The notes below the pieces were generated by a model. The model did no database searches and had not been told where the DNA came from. It worked only from the letters and a program-made list of their open reading frames with translations. The position numbers and the translations under genes were made by a program. From a virus, in the IMG/VR virus record IMGVR_UViG_3300017991_000049, positions 1 through 64,000 of that record: a stretch of 64,000 bases of DNA; one strand, 5' to 3'. How positions within the stretch are numbered: the first letter of the stretch is position 1; each line of letters begins with the position of its first letter. Shown here one piece after another: positions 472-42,190 of this stretch.

Positions 472-2367
472 ATGTCTTCTGACTCTCCAGTCTTCGACGA
501 ACCGATTGCGCTAGAAGGACTCCTGGCGCAAGCGAAAACAGTGTTCAATCCCGATGAAAACTCTCGAATAACGTCCACCGACCAGGTGGCCGCCTACAAT
601 AAGCTGTTGCGCACAGGCCAGGTAGATACCCTGGCGCACGCGCTACCGCTTATGTTGAACCTCAAGGGTAATCCGTACACCCTGAACGACCACTTTCCTT
701 TCGAGGAAATCTTCCGGTTCCACATGCCGTCGGCGCTGATCTACAAGACCGGCCGGCAGGTGTCCAAATCTACATCTCTGGCAGCGCACGGCGTCGTTAC
801 GTCGATCTCGCTGCCGAACATCACCACGCTGTACGTCATGCCGCTCTTCGAGCAGGTGCGCCGTTTCAGCACGATGTTTGTGCAACCATTCATCGACCAA
901 TCGCCGGTCAAGAAGCTCTGGACGGGCACGGACACCGTGAACAGCGTGCTCCACCGCAGCTTCCACAACCATTCGAAGATGCTCTTCTCGTTCGCGTTCC
1001 TGAACGCAGACCGTATCCGCGGTATTTCCGCGGACAAGATGGCGGTCGACGAAGTCCAGGACATGAACCACGAGCACATCCCCATTATACGCGAAACGAT
1101 GTCGGCAAGCCCGTGGGCCTTCCGACAATTTACCGGAACGCCCAAAACGCTCGACAATACGCTGGAAGCGCTCTGGGGTGAGTCGTCCCAAGCAGAGTGG
1201 TTTGTGCCGTGCATGCACTGCACGACCAACGGCGCGCCGACCTGGAACATCCCCACAATGGAGTTCCACCTGGAGAAGATGATCGGGCCCTACCGCCCAG
1301 ACATCTCCGAGGCGCATCCGGCAACGATCTGCCACAAGTGCGGCAAAGCGATCAGCCCACGCCTCGGCCGGTGGGTGCACAGATACCCTGATCGGATTTG
1401 GGATCAGGCGGGCTATCACGTGCCGCAGGTCATAATGCCGCTGCACTATGCGAAACCTGACAAGTGGGCAGAACTACTTGCCAAGATGGCCGGTAAGGGC
1501 AACACCCCGCTGAACGTGTTCTTCAACGAAGTGCTGGGCGAATCGTACGATACGGCAGCCAAGCTCGTGACGCTGACCGAGATCGACGCGGTGTCAAACC
1601 TTGGCGAGAACACCATCAACGCAGCGCGCGCCCGCCGGGGTATGTACAGCATGGTTGTGCTGGCAGTCGACTGGGGTGGCGGCGGTGAGAAGGGCCTGAG
1701 CTTCACGACGGCTGCCGTGTTGGGTATGCGCCGAGACGGCACCATCGAGGTCATCTACGGCAAGCGCCTGCTGACGCCACACGACCACCTGCGCGAGGCT
1801 CGAGAGATCAAGCAGCTCTGGGAGATCTTCAAGCCCACGATACTGGCGCACGACTACACAGGCGCCGGTGCGCTCCGCGAGACGTTCCTGATCCAGGCTG
1901 GTGTGCCCACGCGGGCCACGATGCCTTGCCAGTACGTCCGCTCGGCGTCGCAGCAGCCGTGCTACCACGTGGCGCCTACGCTGCAGCACCCACGCTCGCA
2001 CTACCGCGTTGACAAGAGCCGCTCGCTGTTGCTCACCTGCGCGATGATCAAATGCCGACGGCTCAAGTTCTTCAACAAGGACCACAATAGCAAGGAAGAC
2101 CCAGGACTCATCTGGGACTTCTTGGCCCTGGTGGAAGACAAGGTCACCACGATGGCTGCGGGCGAGATCTACCGGATCACGAAGCAGCCGGGCTTCACCG
2201 ACGACTTCGCGCAAGCTGTGAACCTGGGATGCGTCGCAATGTGGTATCGCACCCGCAGATGGCCAAAGCTTGACGAGATCGCCGAGTACGCCATCACGGA
2301 CGACCAGCTACGCGCGTCGGTGCCGCAGCACGACTCCGACTGGGACGACGAGCTACTGCCAGGCTAG
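472..2367 (+). CDS. terL: terminase large subunit (ATPase plus nuclease)
   Basis: 631 aa. Walker A-like GRQVSKST, Walker B-like MAVDEVQDM, C-terminal RNaseH-like nuclease region (VLAVDWGGGG). Size and architecture typical of phage TerL. Confidence 0.85.
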   Translation: MSSDSPVFDEPIALEGLLAQAKTVFNPDENSRITSTDQVAAYNKLLRTGQVDTLAHALPLMLNLKGNPYTLNDHFPFEEIFRFHMPSALIYKTGRQVSKSTSLAAHGVVTSISLPNITTLYVMPLFEQVRRFSTMFVQPFIDQSPVKKLWTGTDTVNSVLHRSFHNHSKMLFSFAFLNADRIRGISADKMAVDEVQDMNHEHIPIIRETMSASPWAFRQFTGTPKTLDNTLEALWGESSQAEWFVPCMHCTTNGAPTWNIPTMEFHLEKMIGPYRPDISEAHPATICHKCGKAISPRLGRWVHRYPDRIWDQAGYHVPQVIMPLHYAKPDKWAELLAKMAGKGNTPLNVFFNEVLGESYDTAAKLVTLTEIDAVSNLGENTINAARARRGMYSMVVLAVDWGGGGEKGLSFTTAAVLGMRRDGTIEVIYGKRLLTPHDHLREAREIKQLWEIFKPTILAHDYTGAGALRETFLIQAGVPTRATMPCQYVRSASQQPCYHVAPTLQHPRSHYRVDKSRSLLLTCAMIKCRRLKFFNKDHNSKEDPGLIWDFLALVEDKVTTMAAGEIYRITKQPGFTDDFAQAVNLGCVAMWYRTRRWPKLDEIAEYAITDDQLRASVPQHDSDWDDELLPG

Positions 2368-3077
2368 TCATCCCATTCCTCGATCCGGTAGCCAAGGAAC
2401 TCGAACAGCTGATCGTTGGGCTCCCTGTAGACGTCCGCCAGCCGCTGGCGCATCTTAGCGCGCATAGGCGGATACTTCCGTCGGTAGTTACGCGTATGGG
2501 GCAGCTTGCACCCAGCCAGCCCAAGCCACGCGAAGACGTCGTTCGTGGTGCGGGCGCTGTCAATACGCATGCGCTCGTTCACGATGATTAGCTGTTGCTC
2601 ACGTGGGTAGAATTCCGTGAGTACCTTGAGTTGTTTAGCGTACAGCCCGCGTCGGATACAATCGAGCTCGCCGCGCAGCGTAAGCTCTTTGTCGACATCC
2701 GGCAGCTCTTCGTTGATAAACTCGCGGAACGAACGGCCTTTTGCGCTGCCGCCGCGCCGTGCTAGTTGGTACTGCGAGTAGCACCGATCAATCGGGTTAC
2801 GTAGCACCATGATCAGCTTGACCTGCGGCAGCACTGTATGCATGCGGGCGATGTGCGTCCGGTGCAGCATGTATCCGGGTGTCTTCTCGCCGCAGACGCG
2901 TCCGCGACTGCCGTTGAACTGCCGTACGTACCAGGCTACGCCGCGGTCCCAATGCATATCAAAGAAGTGCAGCTCCTTGCCTGGAAAATAGACGGCAGGA
3001 TGTTGCTGCATATTGGACACCAGCGCGGTGGTGCCGCACTTCTGCGCTCCCGCTATCACAAAGTATGGTAGTTGCAT
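2364..3077 (-). CDS. PAPS-dependent sulfotransferase
   Basis: 237 aa. 5'-PSB motif IAGAQKCGTTAL and 3'-PB motif RNPIDRCYSQY of the sulfotransferase fold. Stop overlaps the terL stop by 4 nt. Confidence 0.8.
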   Translation of the reverse strand: MQLPYFVIAGAQKCGTTALVSNMQQHPAVYFPGKELHFFDMHWDRGVAWYVRQFNGSRGRVCGEKTPGYMLHRTHIARMHTVLPQVKLIMVLRNPIDRCYSQYQLARRGGSAKGRSFREFINEELPDVDKELTLRGELDCIRRGLYAKQLKVLTEFYPREQQLIIVNERMRIDSARTTNDVFAWLGLAGCKLPHTRNYRRKYPPMRAKMRQRLADVYREPNDQLFEFLGYRIEEWDD

Positions 3078-6952: not shown

Positions 6953-7569
6953 ATTAGCCAATCGTTTTCATCCTGCATACGCTGGATTTTCTTGGTCTGC
7001 TTGATATGCCAGTTGTAGTGGCACATATAGCGATTCTCGCTCAGCTGACTGTTCAGCTGGTACCACCCAGACGGGTACATCAGCGGGTCCAGCATGACCA
7101 TGTCCACGACATCAGGCTCTTTCCGCAACCTGTGCTGGATACGCATCTGATCGTCGCAGTATTGGCGGCGCCGGCGGTACTTAGGCAGGTTCGCAGGGTC
7201 CAGCAGGTCCAGCGTCGCTGGCGTCGGTGCCGCGGCGAAGAATCCTGCGCACACCTTGTTGTCGCCGTCCGGACAGTCACGTTGGAAGACGATGTCGTGG
7301 CCTTCAAGCGTGCGCTCCAAATCCTTACGCGGATCACGGCGGAAAACGACGTCGACGTCGGTCCAGATGACGACCTCGCCTTTCAGAAGCTCCTTGCGTA
7401 CGAGCCTGACCTTCTGCATCATCATCTGTTCGAACAGCTCGGTACCGTACGGCTCGCCGTGCACCTGCATATCGTGGATCTCGATGCCAACGCCGATGCG
7501 CTTCAACGACGCGAGCATGTTTTGCACCAGCGGACCCACTCTTTCGGTGCACATCGAAATCAATTTCAT
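6949..7569 (-). CDS. nucleotide-diphospho-sugar (GT-A fold) glycosyltransferase
   Basis: Start set to MKLISM because upstream codons overlap tRNA-Arg. Motifs VVIWTDVDVVF (DxD) and DIVFQRDCPDG. About 206 aa. Confidence 0.45.
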   Translation of the reverse strand: MKLISMCTERVGPLVQNMLASLKRIGVGIEIHDMQVHGEPYGTELFEQMMMQKVRLVRKELLKGEVVIWTDVDVVFRRDPRKDLERTLEGHDIVFQRDCPDGDNKVCAGFFAAAPTPATLDLLDPANLPKYRRRRQYCDDQMRIQHRLRKEPDVVDMVMLDPLMYPSGWYQLNSQLSENRYMCHYNWHIKQTKKIQRMQDENDWLI

Positions 7570-13520: not shown

Positions 13521-14168
13521 CTAAACCTCATGTACGCCTATGTTTACGGCCAGCGACTCGTCTTTTGCCGCCGCCGCCAGAATGTCCTGGAAGCGTACCA
13601 TCTCCTCGGGCGCCATTGTGACATGGGCGGCGACGCGGCCGTTCACGAAGAGCATGCCGGATGTGAAATAGTCGCCTTTGGCTACGTGCAGTATCTGGAA
13701 TGTCATGCGAAGGCGTTCCACCGGAGCGTTCTTGCAACCTAGGAGGAGCAGGACCTCGTTCCGGACATCTTTCAACCTGAGTCCTAGGTTCAGCAATACC
13801 TGCGACGCAGTGCCTTCGCCTTCCCGAAGCAGTCCCAGCAAGATGTGCTCGGTGCCGACGTGGTTGTGGTTGAGCAGCCGCGCCTCGTCCATAGCGAACT
13901 CTATGACCTTCTTGGCCCGGGGCGTCTGCGGCAGCTTGCCCATGGTCACCATATCGGGACCGCTCTGGACCAGCTTCTCCACCTCGAGGCGGATCTTCCG
14001 CACGTCGTAGCCTAGATTCTGCAGCGCGTTGGACGCGACCCCGCTGCCCTCCTTAATCAGTCCCATCAACACATGCTCGGTGCCGACGTACTCGTGGTTG
14101 AACCGCTGGGCCTCTTGGTTGGCCAGCTGAAACACCCGTCGTGCTCGATCCGTGAACTTCTCGTACAT
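13521..14168 (-). CDS. standalone double Clp N-terminal domain protein (ClpA/B/C N-domain repeats, no ATPase)
   Basis: 215 aa. Two repeats [37 protein letters not shown] and [35 protein letters not shown] match the Clp_N repeat signature. Confidence 0.75.
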   Translation of the reverse strand: [215 protein letters not shown]

Positions 14169-14395
14169 ACATACTCCTTCCGTGTGCGACCGCCAGGCTG
14201 GCTAAACCCAGCGGTCGCCTGATATTGGTTGACTTGTCAAAGATCATTGTTGCTGCGGAGTTCGTGTGCCATCACCTTGCTGGCGCTTACGATCCGCAGT
14301 TCGGCCAACACCGTACTCGCCGGCGCTGACCGAACGTTTGTTCCGCTGCAGACGTCGCCTGCGGCGTTCGAGTTTCTTCTGCTTCTTATTCATAG

Positions 14396-14470
14396 TGGCC
14401 CAGGTGAGATTCGAACTCACAGCATCTCGACGTTTGAAATCGAGTGGTCTGCCGGTTGCCTACCGGGCCA
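14396..14470 (-). tRNA. type I tRNA with anticodon CAA (Leu codon UUG), unusual D-arm
   Basis: Acceptor GGCCCGG/CUGGGCC, A73. Anticodon stem UCGAU/GUCGA, loop UUCAAAC. D region UAGGCAACCGGCAGACCAC. No long variable arm. Confidence 0.55.
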
Positions 14471-14574
14471 TTGGCATCAGGGGCCACCTCCTAAGGACCC
14501 CATCGTTACACTTGTGTCTCTCGCCGCCCTGTCTTTAACCAGGCACGGGACCGCACCATTGCGGCTGTAACGAG

Positions 14575-14648
14575 TAGCTCAGGTGGGATTCGAACCCACA
14601 GCATCCCGGGGTTTAAGCCCAGGTGGTCTGCCTATTGCCTACCGAGCC
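14575..14648 (-). tRNA. type I tRNA with anticodon TAA (Leu codon UUA), same unusual D-arm family
   Basis: Acceptor GGCUCGG/CUGAGCU, A73. Loop CUUAAAC. D region UAGGCAAUAGGCAGACCAC. Confidence 0.55.
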
Positions 14649-14796
14649 ATTTGCGAGCAAGGTGAGCCGCTTTCATACTCACTTCCCTCACCGTGTCGTT
14701 CATCCTATTGGTCCTAGGTCCGACAAGGATCTCCCGCACGGATTGCGCCAGCCATGACCCGGAGTCGACTCGTGGTCTAGCCATGCTCGCACGACG

Positions 14797-15513
14797 CTAG
14801 CGCCGTTTACGCTTCGTAGGATCCTTTCGGAAACTGAACTTGTTGAAGCCCTTGGCGCCGACCATCACTTTGTCGGGCACGTCCGGGATCGGTTTCTCTG
14901 GCTGCGCTTGCGCGCCCAGGTACATGGCGAGCTCTTGGAACGCTGTGTACCGGTCGAGCACTCGATAAAACTCGATGACCTCCAGTCTAGGGTTGATCTC
15001 TATCTCGTAAACGCTTTTGCGCCATACACGGGCGCGGCTGCTGTCTGCCAGGAAGATCGGCGCACCGAACTTCTCGAACAGCTCCTCGTGTTTGTCTCGT
15101 ACTGCCTCTATCTCCTCGAAGAACTTCTCAATGGAGACCCGCGTGCTCGCCGGCCAACATTCTTTCCGCCATGTCCTTCGCTTCGGTAGTGGCTTTGTGT
15201 ACGCGGCGACCTCCTTCTTATGCATGGTCGCATTCACCCACGCTAGAACCTCGTCAGGGTTGTAGCAGAACACCGGTTTGCAATCTGCTGTCTGGTACTG
15301 GGGTATCCGCACGAGCGGATACAGCTTGCCGCAGAAGCCCACGACAAGCCTTTCTGCGGGTAGTTTGGCCCAGCCACCGCGTCGCTTATGCAACGGAAAC
15401 GGGTACTCTGCAATCTCAACGTCCTCCGATTTTCTAAGGTAGATGAGCGACTGGTCCTGGCCTGCGCCTTGGATGCAGTCATAGTAGTCGTGAAACTCGG
15501 ATATTATGCGCAT
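14797..15513 (-). CDS. hypothetical protein (about 238 aa)
   Basis: Start at MRIISEFHDYYD because upstream codons overlap a tRNA. No motif recognised. Confidence 0.5.
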   Translation of the reverse strand: MRIISEFHDYYDCIQGAGQDQSLIYLRKSEDVEIAEYPFPLHKRRGGWAKLPAERLVVGFCGKLYPLVRIPQYQTADCKPVFCYNPDEVLAWVNATMHKKEVAAYTKPLPKRRTWRKECWPASTRVSIEKFFEEIEAVRDKHEELFEKFGAPIFLADSSRARVWRKSVYEIEINPRLEVIEFYRVLDRYTAFQELAMYLGAQAQPEKPIPDVPDKVMVGAKGFNKFSFRKDPTKRKRR

Positions 15514-15548
15514 GTCTCCACGTGTGTCTGTTGGTGACAGTTTTACCA

Positions 15549-15621
15549 GTAGGCGCGGCAGGATTCGAACCTGCAACATCTAGGTCCTAAACCTAGCGTC
15601 TCTGCCGTTGGACTACACGCC
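15549..15621 (-). tRNA. type I tRNA with anticodon TAG (Leu codon CUA)
   Basis: Acceptor GGGCGUG/CGCGCCU, A73. Anticodon stem CUAGG/CCUAG, loop UUUAGGA. Confidence 0.6.
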
Positions 15622-15625
15622 CAAA

Positions 15626-15709
15626 GCGGAAGCGGGAGGAGTCGAACCTCCTACGGAGTTACCCGCGACTGTTTTCGAGGCAGCTTCCTACCGTTAGGCT
15701 CGCTTCCGT
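15626..15709 (-). tRNA. tRNA-Ser (CGA), type II
   Basis: Acceptor GGAAGCG/CGCUUCC. Loop CUCGAAA. Long variable arm CGCGGGUAACUCCGUAG. Confidence 0.7.
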
Positions 15710-15713
15710 AGTA

Positions 15714-15787
15714 GCCCAGGTGAGATTCGAACTCACAGCATCGCGGGGTCTGAGGCCGCGTGGTCTGCCGATTGCCTACCGGGCTAT
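15714..15787 (-). tRNA. type I tRNA with anticodon CAG (Leu codon CUG), unusual D-arm family
   Basis: Acceptor AGCCCGG/CUGGGCU, A73. Loop CUCAGAC (or a 9-nt loop if the stem is CGCGG/CCGCG). D region UAGGCAAUCGGCAGACCAC. Confidence 0.55.
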
Positions 15788-15791
15788 AGTA

Positions 15792-15865
15792 GCAAGGGTG
15801 GGATTCGAACCCACAGCATCACGCCCTCTCAAGGCGCGTGGTCTGCCTGTTGCCTACCTTGCTAG
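15792..15865 (-). tRNA. type I tRNA with anticodon GAG (Leu codons CUC/CUU), unusual D-arm family
   Basis: Acceptor AGCAAGG/CCUUGCU, A73. Anticodon stem GCGCC/GGCGU, loop UUGAGAG. Confidence 0.55.
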
Positions 15866-24613: not shown

Positions 24614-25399
24614 TCATATTCTTATCAGACTGTTCGGGAAACGTCTACGCCTAGCACAGAGCCATTTGGCGTCATTGGAGCAGTCGTTGGCGATGATCGG
24701 CACCTCGTGCTCCACGATATACTCGAAGATCTTCACAGTGATTTCGCGACTCTCGCGCGGCGATAGCAGCTGCAAAGGCTCGAAGAAATAGCAGTCTCCT
24801 ACGAGTTCACGTGCGCGCTGACACCGTACGTACAGCTCCGCCAGGTTGATATGCGAGACCTGCTTGGCGACCTCGTGGATGAGTCCCTTGGTGATCAGAT
24901 TGTCGTAAACCTCTGGTATGGAAGGGACTTCGACCGTGTCGGCCCACTCCAATTTGGACATGTCCCACGTGGCTGCCAGGTTCAACCGAATCTCGTTGAT
25001 ACCCGCAGCGCGCAGGCGCTCCGCGGTCTCCTTGTTCAGCCGCAGGCCGTTGGTATAGCACCACTGCCAATCGACATCGAGCTGCTCAGCAATCTCGACG
25101 ATCTTGTCGATGTACAGCAACGGCTCACCGCCGGAGTAGCTTACGCCGCGGATATCGTACTGGTAGATCTGCGATACAATCCGATCGAGATGGCCGGGCG
25201 TGTCCAGCCGATTGCGCTCTGGACGGCTGCAGAACCAGCAGTCAGCGTTGCAGCGCTGTCCCATGAACAGGCATAGCCACGTACCATCCTTGCAGCGCTG
25301 GCATCCTTTGGACAGGTCATGAATTTCGCCGTTCGTGACAGTGCCATCTGAGATGTGGACACCAAGCTTCTCGTAGCGGTCTCGATGTTCGGGTAGCAT
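24614..25399 (-). CDS. radical SAM enzyme (QueE / activating-enzyme-like)
   Basis: 261 aa. CNADCWFC (CxxxCxxC) cluster and SGGEPLL glycine-rich SAM motif. Confidence 0.8.
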   Translation of the reverse strand: MLPEHRDRYEKLGVHISDGTVTNGEIHDLSKGCQRCKDGTWLCLFMGQRCNADCWFCSRPERNRLDTPGHLDRIVSQIYQYDIRGVSYSGGEPLLYIDKIVEIAEQLDVDWQWCYTNGLRLNKETAERLRAAGINEIRLNLAATWDMSKLEWADTVEVPSIPEVYDNLITKGLIHEVAKQVSHINLAELYVRCQRARELVGDCYFFEPLQLLSPRESREITVKIFEYIVEHEVPIIANDCSNDAKWLCARRRRFPNSLIRI

Positions 25400-27737: not shown

Positions 27738-28034
27738 TGTGCTAGGACTGATCCGACTTGTTGACTTCTCCGTTTAATCCGTATGCGTGAATCTCTCGTA
27801 AAAGGCGTACTTCATTATACTACCGGGGCTCGAGCGCCGATTTGCCAGGCCGGCTCGGCGAGGCCTTTGTAGGGCACCTGCCACTGGCAGATGCCAAGCG
27901 CCCCGGGGGGAGTTGATACCCCATCTCCTAGTAGGTAAGGATAGCTACGGAATTCGATTCAACAAGTGACAACACGGGTGATCTTGAGCGATAGCTTGAG
28001 TCTGAACGTGAAGTGCGCATAGGGTTCCGTTGAT

Positions 28035-28066
28035 GGTGACGCTCTAGCAATTGAGCTACCCCACAG
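28035..28066 (-). ncRNA. isolated tRNA 5' half (acceptor UGUGGGG plus D-arm GCUCAAUUGCUAGAGC plus UCACC)
   Basis: Its acceptor strand pairs 7/7 with CCCCACA in the fragment at 28149-28183, and UCACC pairs with GGUGA there. Confidence 0.45.
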
Positions 28067-28071
28067 GAAAG

Positions 28072-28143
28072 ATCCGGCGGTGGGATTCGAACCCACGTGG
28101 GCTGGTTTACAAAACCAGTGCATGGCCTCTCTGCCACACCGGA
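28072..28143 (-). tRNA. tRNA-Thr (TGT)
   Basis: Acceptor UCCGGUG/CGCCGGA. Anticodon stem CUGGU/ACCAG, loop UUUGUAA. T-arm GUGGGUUCGAAUCCCAC. Confidence 0.7.
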
Positions 28144-28148
28144 GTAAG

Positions 28149-28183
28149 TTGTGGGGGGAGGACTCCAACCTCCAACCTTCACC
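28149..28183 (-). ncRNA. isolated tRNA 3' half (GGUGA, variable, T-arm GGAGGUUGGAGUCCUCC, acceptor CCCCACA, A)
   Basis: Complements the 5' half at 28035-28066 but lies upstream of it on the transcribed strand (permuted order). Confidence 0.45.
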
Positions 28184-28245
28184 TATGGAACCTGTATCAT
28201 GCGCGTTTTTGAGTCTGAGTCTGAACTTGTCGCTATGTAAAGCTG

Positions 28246-41251: not shown

Positions 41252-42190
41252 TTACTGAGTCGCGGGCGCGTGTCGAATGGTTTCGATCGACTCCCGCATC
41301 ATAGCGGTGTTCATCGTGGCCTGGTTGATCGCCTCGTAAGGCATAATGAAGACCACGTTGTTCTCGCCCTTGGCCATTTCGGTGGAGACGTTTTCCATCA
41401 CCTCCATCTGGCGCCACGATAAGTACGATGGCGTCAGCGACTTGGCCAAGATACCGTTTTCGTCCGCCTGGGCTTGCGCCCGGATCATACGGACTTTTGC
41501 CAATTCCGTTTCTATTCCGGCCCGCCGTTGTGCTTCCGCCATTTCGGCCTCAGCCAGGGCTGCCTTCCGTTGATCTTCCAGCTCGGCATTCTTGATAGCG
41601 TTCCGTTGCTGGATAACGACCGGCGGATAGTCGATGTTGGAGACCAACACCGCCGATACGTTCAGCGGGTACTTCAGCGCGGTCAGTCGTTTGCGTACGT
41701 CCGCCGATAGATCCGCCTCGATCTTCAATCTGTTAGGCCGGATGTCATCGGTTTCGTACGTGCTAACGATATTGCGCGTTGACGATCGAATGATGTCCCG
41801 AACGGTCATCTCGTAGAACTTGTCCAGAGACAGCTCGTGTCCGGCTACCTCAGAGCCGTCTGCTGTCTTAATCGCCGGAACTTTCTCCTTGATGAACTCG
41901 ATCGAATCTTTGTCGACCTGGAACGACAGCACGGCCTTCGTGTCGACGTCCATGTTGATATCGTCCGTACAGAGAATCTTCAGCGTCTCCTTGTACGACT
42001 TCAACTTCTGGTCAACGAAGTACAGCCGATCGCGGCCGTAGGCCTTGTACACGCCCTCGCTGACGATGGTGCTCTCACCGCTTGGGTGGAGGATGATCAC
42101 CTTCTTTCCAGGAGGCACGACGCTTCCCATGCACCCGGTCAGTGTCATCACGAAACACGCCAACAAGCTAATCAGAATCAACCTCTTCAT
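41252..42190 (-). CDS. SPFH/band-7 (stomatin/prohibitin-like) lipoprotein
   Basis: Lipobox LTGC after the signal peptide MKRLILISLLACFVMTLTGC. Central SPFH-like region and Ala/Glu-rich coiled coil (AALAEAEMAEAQRRAGIETELAKVRMIRAQAQADENG). Confidence 0.65.
   Translation of the reverse strand: MKRLILISLLACFVMTLTGCMGSVVPPGKKVIILHPSGESTIVSEGVYKAYGRDRLYFVDQKLKSYKETLKILCTDDINMDVDTKAVLSFQVDKDSIEFIKEKVPAIKTADGSEVAGHELSLDKFYEMTVRDIIRSSTRNIVSTYETDDIRPNRLKIEADLSADVRKRLTALKYPLNVSAVLVSNIDYPPVVIQQRNAIKNAELEDQRKAALAEAEMAEAQRRAGIETELAKVRMIRAQAQADENGILAKSLTPSYLSWRQMEVMENVSTEMAKGENNVVFIMPYEAINQATMNTAMMRESIETIRHAPATQ

Follow-up and report, generated by a model that had tools for sequence, protein, structure and literature searches.

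A phage tRNA cluster with five short leucine tRNAs, four of them sharing an atypical core

Introduction

In textbooks, a long variable arm is a constant feature of bacterial tRNA-Leu. In a stretch of 64,000 nucleotides (nt) of DNA from an uncultured phage (the window; positions 1 to 64,000 of IMG/VR record IMGVR_UViG_3300017991_000049), a sequence-only reading had pointed to five tRNA genes with short variable loops (type I) that together carry all five leucine anticodons, and had proposed that they are structurally aberrant leucine tRNAs, a family of different identity or, in some copies, tRNAs with 9-nt anticodon loops. Are these genes functional leucine tRNAs, and how might they have come to lack the arm? 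Our analysis makes it quite probable that the five are functional leucine tRNAs that decode all six codons and are charged by the host's leucyl-tRNA synthetase (LeuRS) through the discriminator base A73 and the tRNA core.

Five short leucine tRNA genes on the minus strand

ARAGORN called tRNA-Leu genes on the minus strand at 14395-14469 (anticodon caa), 14574-14648 (taa), 15549-15622 (tag), 15711-15785 (cag) and 15789-15863 (gag), all of them 74-75 nt long as called and none with a long variable arm. The Rfam tRNA model (RF00005) matched all five above its 29-bit gathering threshold, with model positions 1-71 covered. The tag copy scored 60.2 bits and the other four 39.3-45.3 bits; in the alignment of these four, two D-stem pairs are non-standard and the anticodon arm has extra bases. 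Automated calling thus returned the same leucine anticodons as the sequence-only reading, whose coordinates were correct to within 1-3 nt, and revealed no long variable arm that had been missed. Four copies share a body that we call class A, and the fifth has a conventional body (class B):

14396-14469, minus strand: tRNA-Leu(CAA), class A, 74 nt, anticodon at 14434-14436 (TTG on the plus strand)
14575-14648, minus strand: tRNA-Leu(UAA), class A, 74 nt, anticodon at 14613-14615 (TTA on the plus strand)
15550-15622, minus strand: tRNA-Leu(UAG), class B (conventional type I cloverleaf), 73 nt, anticodon at 15587-15589
15712-15785, minus strand: tRNA-Leu(CAG), class A, 74 nt, anticodon at 15750-15752
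15790-15863, minus strand: tRNA-Leu(GAG), class A, 74 nt, anticodon at 15828-15830

The anticodon loops, read from the sequence, are UUCAAAC, CUUAAAC, UUUAGGA, CUCAGAC and UUGAGAG in the order of this list. Every copy has A73 followed by CU, so that the CCA end is not encoded. The variable loops are 5 nt long (AUGCU in the four class A copies, AUGUU in the UAG copy), and none of the five has the variable arm of more than 10 nt forming a stem-loop that marks a type II tRNA. The atypical D region common to four copies contains the motif TAGGCAANNGGCAGACCAC, which occurs four times in the window against 0.13 expected, a count reached in 0 of 100 shuffles. For the anticodon loops, the variable loops and A73 the original description was accurate.

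The four class A copies are 76-85% identical to one another. Their anticodon helices read CUCGAU/GUCGAG in the CAA copy (Rfam 45.3 bits, class A model 91.9 bits), CCUGGG/CCCGGG in the UAA copy (41.8 and 94.8 bits), CGCGG(C)/(C)CCGCG with a C.C mismatch at the loop end in the CAG copy (39.3 and 90.1 bits) and CGCGCC/GGCGUG in the GAG copy (43.8 and 91.5 bits). The UAG copy has a D stem of G10-C25, U11-A24 and C12-G23 plus a C13.A22 mismatch, the D loop AACGGCAG and a 5-bp anticodon stem. It scores 53.8 bits with the class A model and is 73% identical to the gag tRNA of L001, an IMG/VR contig from a relative of the window phage.

Together the five anticodons cover all six leucine codons, as the sequence-only reading had stated, and all six are used in the open reading frames (ORFs) of the window, where leucine accounts for 8.5% of codons (CUG 40%, CUC 21%, UUG 16%, CUU 12%, CUA 8% and UUA 3% of leucine codons). 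ARAGORN and Rfam found decoders for the other 19 amino acids and no leucine tRNA beyond the five, and an Rfam scan of the full window found no type II tRNA-Leu.

A body with a short D stem and a long anticodon helix

The class A body has a 7-bp acceptor stem, U8 A9 and the D arm GGC AAnnGGCAG ACC. An unpaired A precedes an anticodon helix of six stacked pairs with a 7-nt loop, followed by AUGCU, a normal T arm and A73. The D stem has two Watson-Crick pairs, G10-C25 and G11-C24, followed by C.A, and encloses the D loop AAnnGGCAG. Covariation was computed on an alignment of 35 class A sequences, with 500 shuffles and slid registers as controls. Pairing is found in 97.6% of cells and 15 of 20 pairs change on both sides; no shuffle reached either value and no slid register approached the observed pairing. 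Both-side changes affect all seven acceptor pairs, five of six pairs in the anticodon helix and three of five in the T stem. The D stem was fixed by the retrieval pattern (see below), so that covariation was judged on the other three helices.

Within the anticodon helix, 34 of the 35 sequences have C:G as the top pair, and the next five pairs covary. This nearly invariant C:G can be either the sixth pair of the stem or a Watson-Crick 26:44 pair, both of which fit the sequence. In class A the D stem is a pair shorter and the anticodon helix a pair longer, so that the two helices keep their combined length. Because 30 of 35 sequences form the pair that closes the loop, using five pair types (GC 16, UA 7, CG 3, AU 2, UG 2), the anticodon loop of the family is 7 nt long, and 9 nt at most in single copies such as the window CAG tRNA.

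This bears on the proposal that some copies have 5-bp stems and 9-nt loops and serve as unusual decoders, for example in frameshift or four-base decoding. The CAG copy, with C.C at the closing position, is the only one that folds, at minimum free energy, with a 5-bp stem and a 9-nt loop. In the CAA copy the closing pair is U.G; the loop receives extra bases in the Rfam alignment, and 5 of 35 class A members break the closing pair. Against this, the five pair types seen at the closing position point to a selected pair, and only the 7-nt register places U33 and purine 37 correctly, which makes such decoding extremely improbable. Alternative 9-nt loops had been noted for the CAA and CAG copies; the fold of the latter has one, the family as a whole does not support them, and the minimum-free-energy fold of the CAA copy has a 6-bp stem and a 7-nt loop.

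Six stacked anticodon-helix pairs and a compact D region are also features of tRNA-Sec and tRNA-Pyl. The five window tRNAs differ from both in having a 7-bp acceptor stem (not 8-9), a 5-nt variable loop and leucine anticodons (not UCA or CUA), and the Rfam tRNA-Sec model does not beat the tRNA model for any of them. Two other pairings were considered and rejected. Minimum-free-energy folds pair G6 G7 U8 with ACC; positions 6 and 7, however, covary with 67 and 68, and ACC is invariant. Pairing of the variable-loop UGC with the D-arm GCA would be antiparallel, whereas the strands of the canonical core run parallel there.

A family restricted to leucine anticodons

Relatives of the class A body were retrieved by exact-pattern scans followed by a full-length regular-expression filter, with the D arm fixed and the anticodon and variable loop left free. 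The 15-base pattern GGCAANNGGCAGACCAC is loose in large collections, and most of its 240 loci were chance matches that the full-length filter removed. There remained 38 distinct class A sequences from 19 IMG/VR contigs and 11 contigs of bacterial metagenome-assembled genomes (MAGs), the body being present in more than 40 copies in phage contigs of IMG/VR and in tRNA arrays of Planctomycetota MAGs. All 11 genome matches belong to Planctomycetota MAGs, where they sit in dense arrays of 10-34 tRNA genes; two of the contigs measure 1.14 Mb and 0.89 Mb. Megablast and blastn searches with the region and with single tRNAs against 50,697 phage records turned up no relative of class A; the matches were at T-arm level or to unrelated short leucine tRNAs. 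Some of the nearest neighbours by D arm had been called as selenocysteine (SeC) tRNAs; they are class A Leu(CAA) tRNAs that ARAGORN reads one base out of register.

The anticodons of the 38 sequences are CAA (10), CAG (10), TAG (9), TAA (5) and GAG (4), with no others, and 35 of the 38 have the variable loop AUGCU even though the pattern left it free. A covariance model of the family gave 50 matches of at least 71.9 bits in 422 kb, followed by a gap down to 59 bits. The matches above the gap include D-arm variants outside the pattern, again with leucine anticodons. All intact matches carry leucine anticodons, the sole exception being a gene at 7210-7301 of the Planctomycetota MAG contig L191, whose anticodon loop is interrupted by an insertion.

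Several such interrupted genes were seen in Planctomycetota MAG contigs. Leucine-type bodies at 7105-7302 and 7853-7948 of L191 and at 921-1016 of L198, one of them class A, contain a hairpin-forming insertion of 20-25 nt in the anticodon loop that reads CGGGCACCGAC...GTTGGT, and ARAGORN reports them as 93-96 nt tRNAs of undetermined type. The insertion could be a small intron or an inserted element.

A further observation concerns position 37. The CUN-reading CAG (15712-15785) and GAG (15790-15863) tRNAs of the window have A37, not G37; so do the long Leu(CAG) tRNAs of the arrays and the majority of class A. In bacteria, tRNA-Leu(CUN) normally has G37, in the form of m1G37.

The restriction to leucine anticodons argues against the view that class A is charged by a synthetase other than LeuRS, with leucine codons given another meaning, or is a tRNA-like family of separate function. 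In favour of that view, class A is unlike a textbook leucine tRNA in its missing long arm, odd D arm and extended anticodon helix, and at least one type I tRNALeu found in nature is not accepted by E. coli LeuRS. However, only the five leucine anticodons occur in intact members, A73 prevails (81 of the 87 short leucine tRNAs in the sampled clusters), and the A73-using synthetases for other amino acids need anticodon bases that are varied or absent here (general identity rules, PMC9976931). The phage would, moreover, be left without a leucine decoder. We consider a different identity, one of the options raised at the outset, highly improbable. The calls, the fold and the exclusive use of leucine anticodons support its first option instead, that the phage uses structurally aberrant leucine tRNAs.

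Very unlikely as well, if slightly less so, is that the genes are decaying pseudogenes or decoys that absorb host tRNA-cleaving enzymes or LeuRS. Phage tRNAs have been proposed to counter host tRNA nucleases (PMC10264068), and a 2021 paper on tRNA arrays reports that 3 of 26 tRNAs of an Anabaena cluster are pseudogenes (PMC8421152). Against both possibilities, compensatory changes maintain the helices across distant contigs (the pattern-fixed D stem aside), the T loop, G18G19, U33 and A73 are intact, and the set covers exactly the six leucine codons that the phage uses.

Leucine identity and charging

E. coli LeuRS requires A73, A14, A15:U48, G18G19 and A20a and needs neither the anticodon nor the variable arm, arm-less constructs remaining active (PMC9976931). 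Apart from the A15:U48 pair in class A (see below), the identity elements of the five window tRNAs match this set. Specifically, all five have U8, AA and GG in the D loop, an A before G21, a variable loop ending in U, and A73. U8 and the D loop are invariant across the class A family. Because these elements are present, we take the five to be leucine acceptors for the host LeuRS. A precedent comes from Streptomyces coelicolor, in which a natural type I tRNALeu(CAA) whose variable loop has 5 nt is charged with leucine both by the LeuRS of that species and by the human mitochondrial enzyme (PMC6614811). The D-loop motif AA..GG.AR, considered as a leucine marker, proved not to be leucine-specific and was dropped.

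We envision the following pathway. The leucine tRNA genes would be transcribed with the rest of the minus-strand tRNA cluster and then trimmed, and CCA would be added by a CCA-adding enzyme. The host LeuRS would then charge the tRNAs with leucine, reading A73, U8:A14, A15:U48 and the G18G19/A20a elbow.

Several points weigh against this interpretation. First, E. coli LeuRS fails to charge the S. coelicolor type I tRNALeu(CAA), and it is LeuRS's leucine-specific domain (LSD) that decides whether type I tRNALeu is charged (PMC6614811). Because of this rejection and the need for the LSD, charging of the window tRNAs would depend on the host enzyme. Second, no gene for an aminoacyl-tRNA synthetase, LeuRS included, or for another tRNA enzyme was found among the 40 window ORFs scanned with Pfam. 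Third, A15 is clear in the UAG tRNA, and in class A the A15:U48 pair depends on how the D arm is numbered, the AA being positions 14 and 15 if position 13 is the C of C.A. Fourth, the class A D arm is thermodynamically weak and absent from the minimum-free-energy folds, and its assignment draws on homology, not covariation: long leucine tRNAs from the arrays read GUGC AAUUGGUAG ACAC and a conventional short example AUGC AAUUUGGCAG ACAU, which suggests that GGC AAnnGGCAG ACC is a leucine-type D arm minus the 12-23 pair. Finally, the class A members are related, so that their counts do not represent independent events.

Probable origin from type II tRNAs by loss of the variable arm

As part of their interpretation as functional leucine tRNAs, the five window tRNAs probably derive from ordinary type II tRNA-Leu that lost its variable arm and kept a 5-nt loop ending in U. 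The string GCAAnnGGYAGAC is common to long leucine tRNAs, class B and class A. Moreover, a 75-nt cag tRNA (812-886 of contig L213) is nearly identical to an 84-nt cag tRNA (3829-3912 of contig L222) minus 10 nt of variable arm. The two genes sit in different Planctomycetota arrays, and the pair is, judged by sequence, a direct example of a change from type II to type I.

In the sampled tRNA clusters, which were retrieved with the class A motif so that the counts of short and long forms are biased, 97 leucine tRNAs are short and 22 long, all 49 serine tRNAs are long and 17 of 20 tyrosine tRNAs are long. Short and long leucine tRNAs coexist in the same arrays. In the window the short form is specific to leucine, because the four serine tRNAs keep long arms (83-85 nt in those called by ARAGORN).

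Bodies and anticodons appear also to have been reassorted. In L001, TAG and TAA occur on class A bodies and GAG and CAA on conventional ones, so that bodies and anticodons are paired differently than in the window. L001 and L005, a second contig from a relative of the window phage, carry the same two bodies with other leucine anticodons than the window does. Anticodons have evidently been exchanged freely between bodies, within the leucine set only, as expected if the charging synthetase does not read the anticodon.

Why the arm was lost is a question of purpose rather than identity. There is somewhat less than an even chance, in our estimate, that the loss was neutral shrinkage, tolerated by a LeuRS blind to the arm, and not a counter-defence adaptation. 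The variable-arm stem is dispensable for the LeuRS of E. coli and of S. coelicolor (PMC9976931, PMC6614811), a single 10-nt deletion converts a long leucine tRNA to a short one with nothing else changed (the L222/L213 pair), and short and long forms lie side by side in the same arrays. Opposed to neutral shrinkage are the serine tRNAs of the same clusters, which never lose the arm, and the tyrosine tRNAs, which rarely do, although the dependence of seryl-tRNA synthetase on the arm would also explain the former. Defence systems that cut a type II variable loop do exist: Septu and retron-Eco7 cut that of tRNATyr, and the tRNATyr of phage T5 resists by means of a different loop (PMC13096335). More generally, phage tRNAs have been proposed to evade anticodon nucleases (PMC10264068). 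Class A, furthermore, shows conserved remodelling beyond a deletion. Class A might be a distinct, horizontally mobile leucine tRNA lineage associated with Planctomycetota, its core rebuilt under selection, with the arm deleted, the D stem shortened, the anticodon helix lengthened and the variable loop settled on AUGCU, to escape host nucleases or toxins that sense the type II shape or the arm while still being accepted by LeuRS; we regard this as unlikely.

Comparison with known short leucine tRNAs

The premise that leucine tRNAs of bacteria and their phages are type II does not hold, since short tRNA-Leu occurs in cultured phages, in a mycobacterial cluster and in S. coelicolor. Annotated examples are found in Mycobacterium phages MrMagoo (tag 77 nt, caa 76 nt) and ScoobyDoobyDoo (cag and gag 75 nt, caa 74 nt) and in the cyanophage Prochlorococcus phage P-SSM7 (UUA, 73 nt), and a one-sentence remark notes the short variable loop of a tRNALeu(TAG) in a mycobacterial tRNA cluster (Behra et al. 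2019, PMC6582537). Like the window tRNAs, these are 73-77 nt long with A73 and a 5-nt variable loop and belong to phages or mobile clusters. They have a 3-bp D stem with a 13.22 mismatch, and the window UAG tRNA is of this same conventional kind; none of those examined shows the D arm of class A, its invariant C:G extension or AUGCU as variable loop.

The S. coelicolor type I tRNALeu(CAA) (Fan et al. 2019, PMC6614811) and the window tRNAs share a 5-nt variable loop that includes nucleotide 48, the U8:A14 element and coexistence with type II tRNAs of other identities. They differ in setting, S. coelicolor having one chromosomal short isoacceptor beside four type II leucine tRNAs and the window five short, phage-borne ones. 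The variable loop is ACAGC in the former and AUGCU or AUGUU in the latter, a comparison made by description and not by sequence. A further difference is the shortened D stem and extended anticodon helix of four window tRNAs.

Bacterial type II tRNA-Leu shares with the short forms the anticodons, A73, the D loop AAnnGGYAG with C13.A22 and the T loop. It has a variable stem-loop of 13-17 nt that the short forms lack and can differ from them by this arm alone; class A also has one D-stem pair fewer and one anticodon-helix pair more. [quoted passage not shown]

According to the 2021 paper, long tRNA arrays of 20-34 genes spread horizontally, also in phages, and are known in Planctomycetota (PMC8421152). 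The arrays described there are packed, whereas the window tRNAs are spread over 31 kb among phage genes; the parts of that paper searched make no mention of the form of the leucine tRNAs. Our literature search returned the Streptomyces study and the mycobacterial remark but no paper devoted to type I tRNA-Leu of phages. Short tRNA-Leu is thus common in phage and mobile tRNA clusters, with a tested Streptomyces precedent, and the finding is real and moderately new. For the complete short set of five leucine isoacceptors and for the class A architecture, the same search returned no description.

The window phage and its other genes

The tRNA genes called by ARAGORN in the window number 39; they fall within 3162-34479, without exception on the minus strand, and are interspersed with phage genes. 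Two further tRNA-like genes were missed by ARAGORN, and with them all 20 amino acids are decoded:

15628-15707, minus strand: type II tRNA-Ser(CGA)-like gene with a 14-nt variable arm, G73 and the loop CUCGAAA, read by eye
16316-16402, minus strand: Tyr(GUA)-like gene with the loop CUGUAAA, A73, a long variable region (about 27 nt) and a D arm so degenerate that it is almost absent

The best Rfam match of the Ser(CGA)-like gene is the tRNA-Sec model at 33.2 bits, below gathering; the gene has a 7-bp acceptor stem, A8 instead of U8 and two mismatches in the anticodon stem. The Tyr(GUA)-like gene reaches 29.3 bits with the tRNA-Sec model, also below gathering, and is the sole candidate for a tyrosine decoder in the window.

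Pfam identified a gpA-type large terminase and GP88-family, Ro60/TROVE and vault-shoulder-domain proteins. No close relative of the phage was found by megablast among 50,697 phage records, in which the best terminase match is 33% identical; the terminase of L001 and L005 is 76% identical.

The Ro60/TROVE protein is encoded at 54288-56030 (minus strand) and has a vWA domain (E 1e-39 to 3e-52). Rfam found no Y RNA adjoining its gene, and a weak YrlA-like match at 28012-28204 (minus strand; 29 bits against a gathering threshold of 69) overlaps tRNA-Thr(UGU) and lies far from it. Unusually for a phage, an 845-amino-acid protein encoded at 19617-22154 (minus strand) contains the shoulder domain of the major vault protein (E 7e-23) together with a vault repeat. 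An SPFH/Band 7 protein is encoded at 41252-42190. The genes interspersed with the tRNAs include loci at 13521-14168, 24614-25399 and 2364-3077 (all minus strand), and those between tRNAs include radical SAM, sulfotransferase, NodZ-like fucosyltransferase and cytidylyltransferase genes as well as one for a protein with a double Clp_N domain, which is also conserved in L001 and L005. Pfam gave no match for the ORF at 14797-15579, which lies between two leucine tRNAs.

Implications

In the sampled phage and mobile clusters, a sample biased by the class A motif, the short form makes up the majority of leucine tRNA genes (97 of 119), and annotation models specific to isotypes may mis-score such tRNAs. 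Short leucine tRNAs also bear on substrate recognition by LeuRS and on the debate over why phages carry tRNAs, and class A offers a natural experiment on the extent of tRNA-core rearrangement compatible with one synthetase. If the arm was lost as a counter-defence, the story of the tRNATyr variable loop, Septu and retron-Eco7 would extend to leucine, and a class A rebuilt to escape nucleases or toxins would be a natural defence-resistant replacement set for a whole six-codon family. As its genome matches are confined to Planctomycetota arrays, the class A family also provides a clue to the host of an otherwise unplaced phage group: its occurrence, the sole basis for naming a host, suggests that these phages may infect Planctomycetota.

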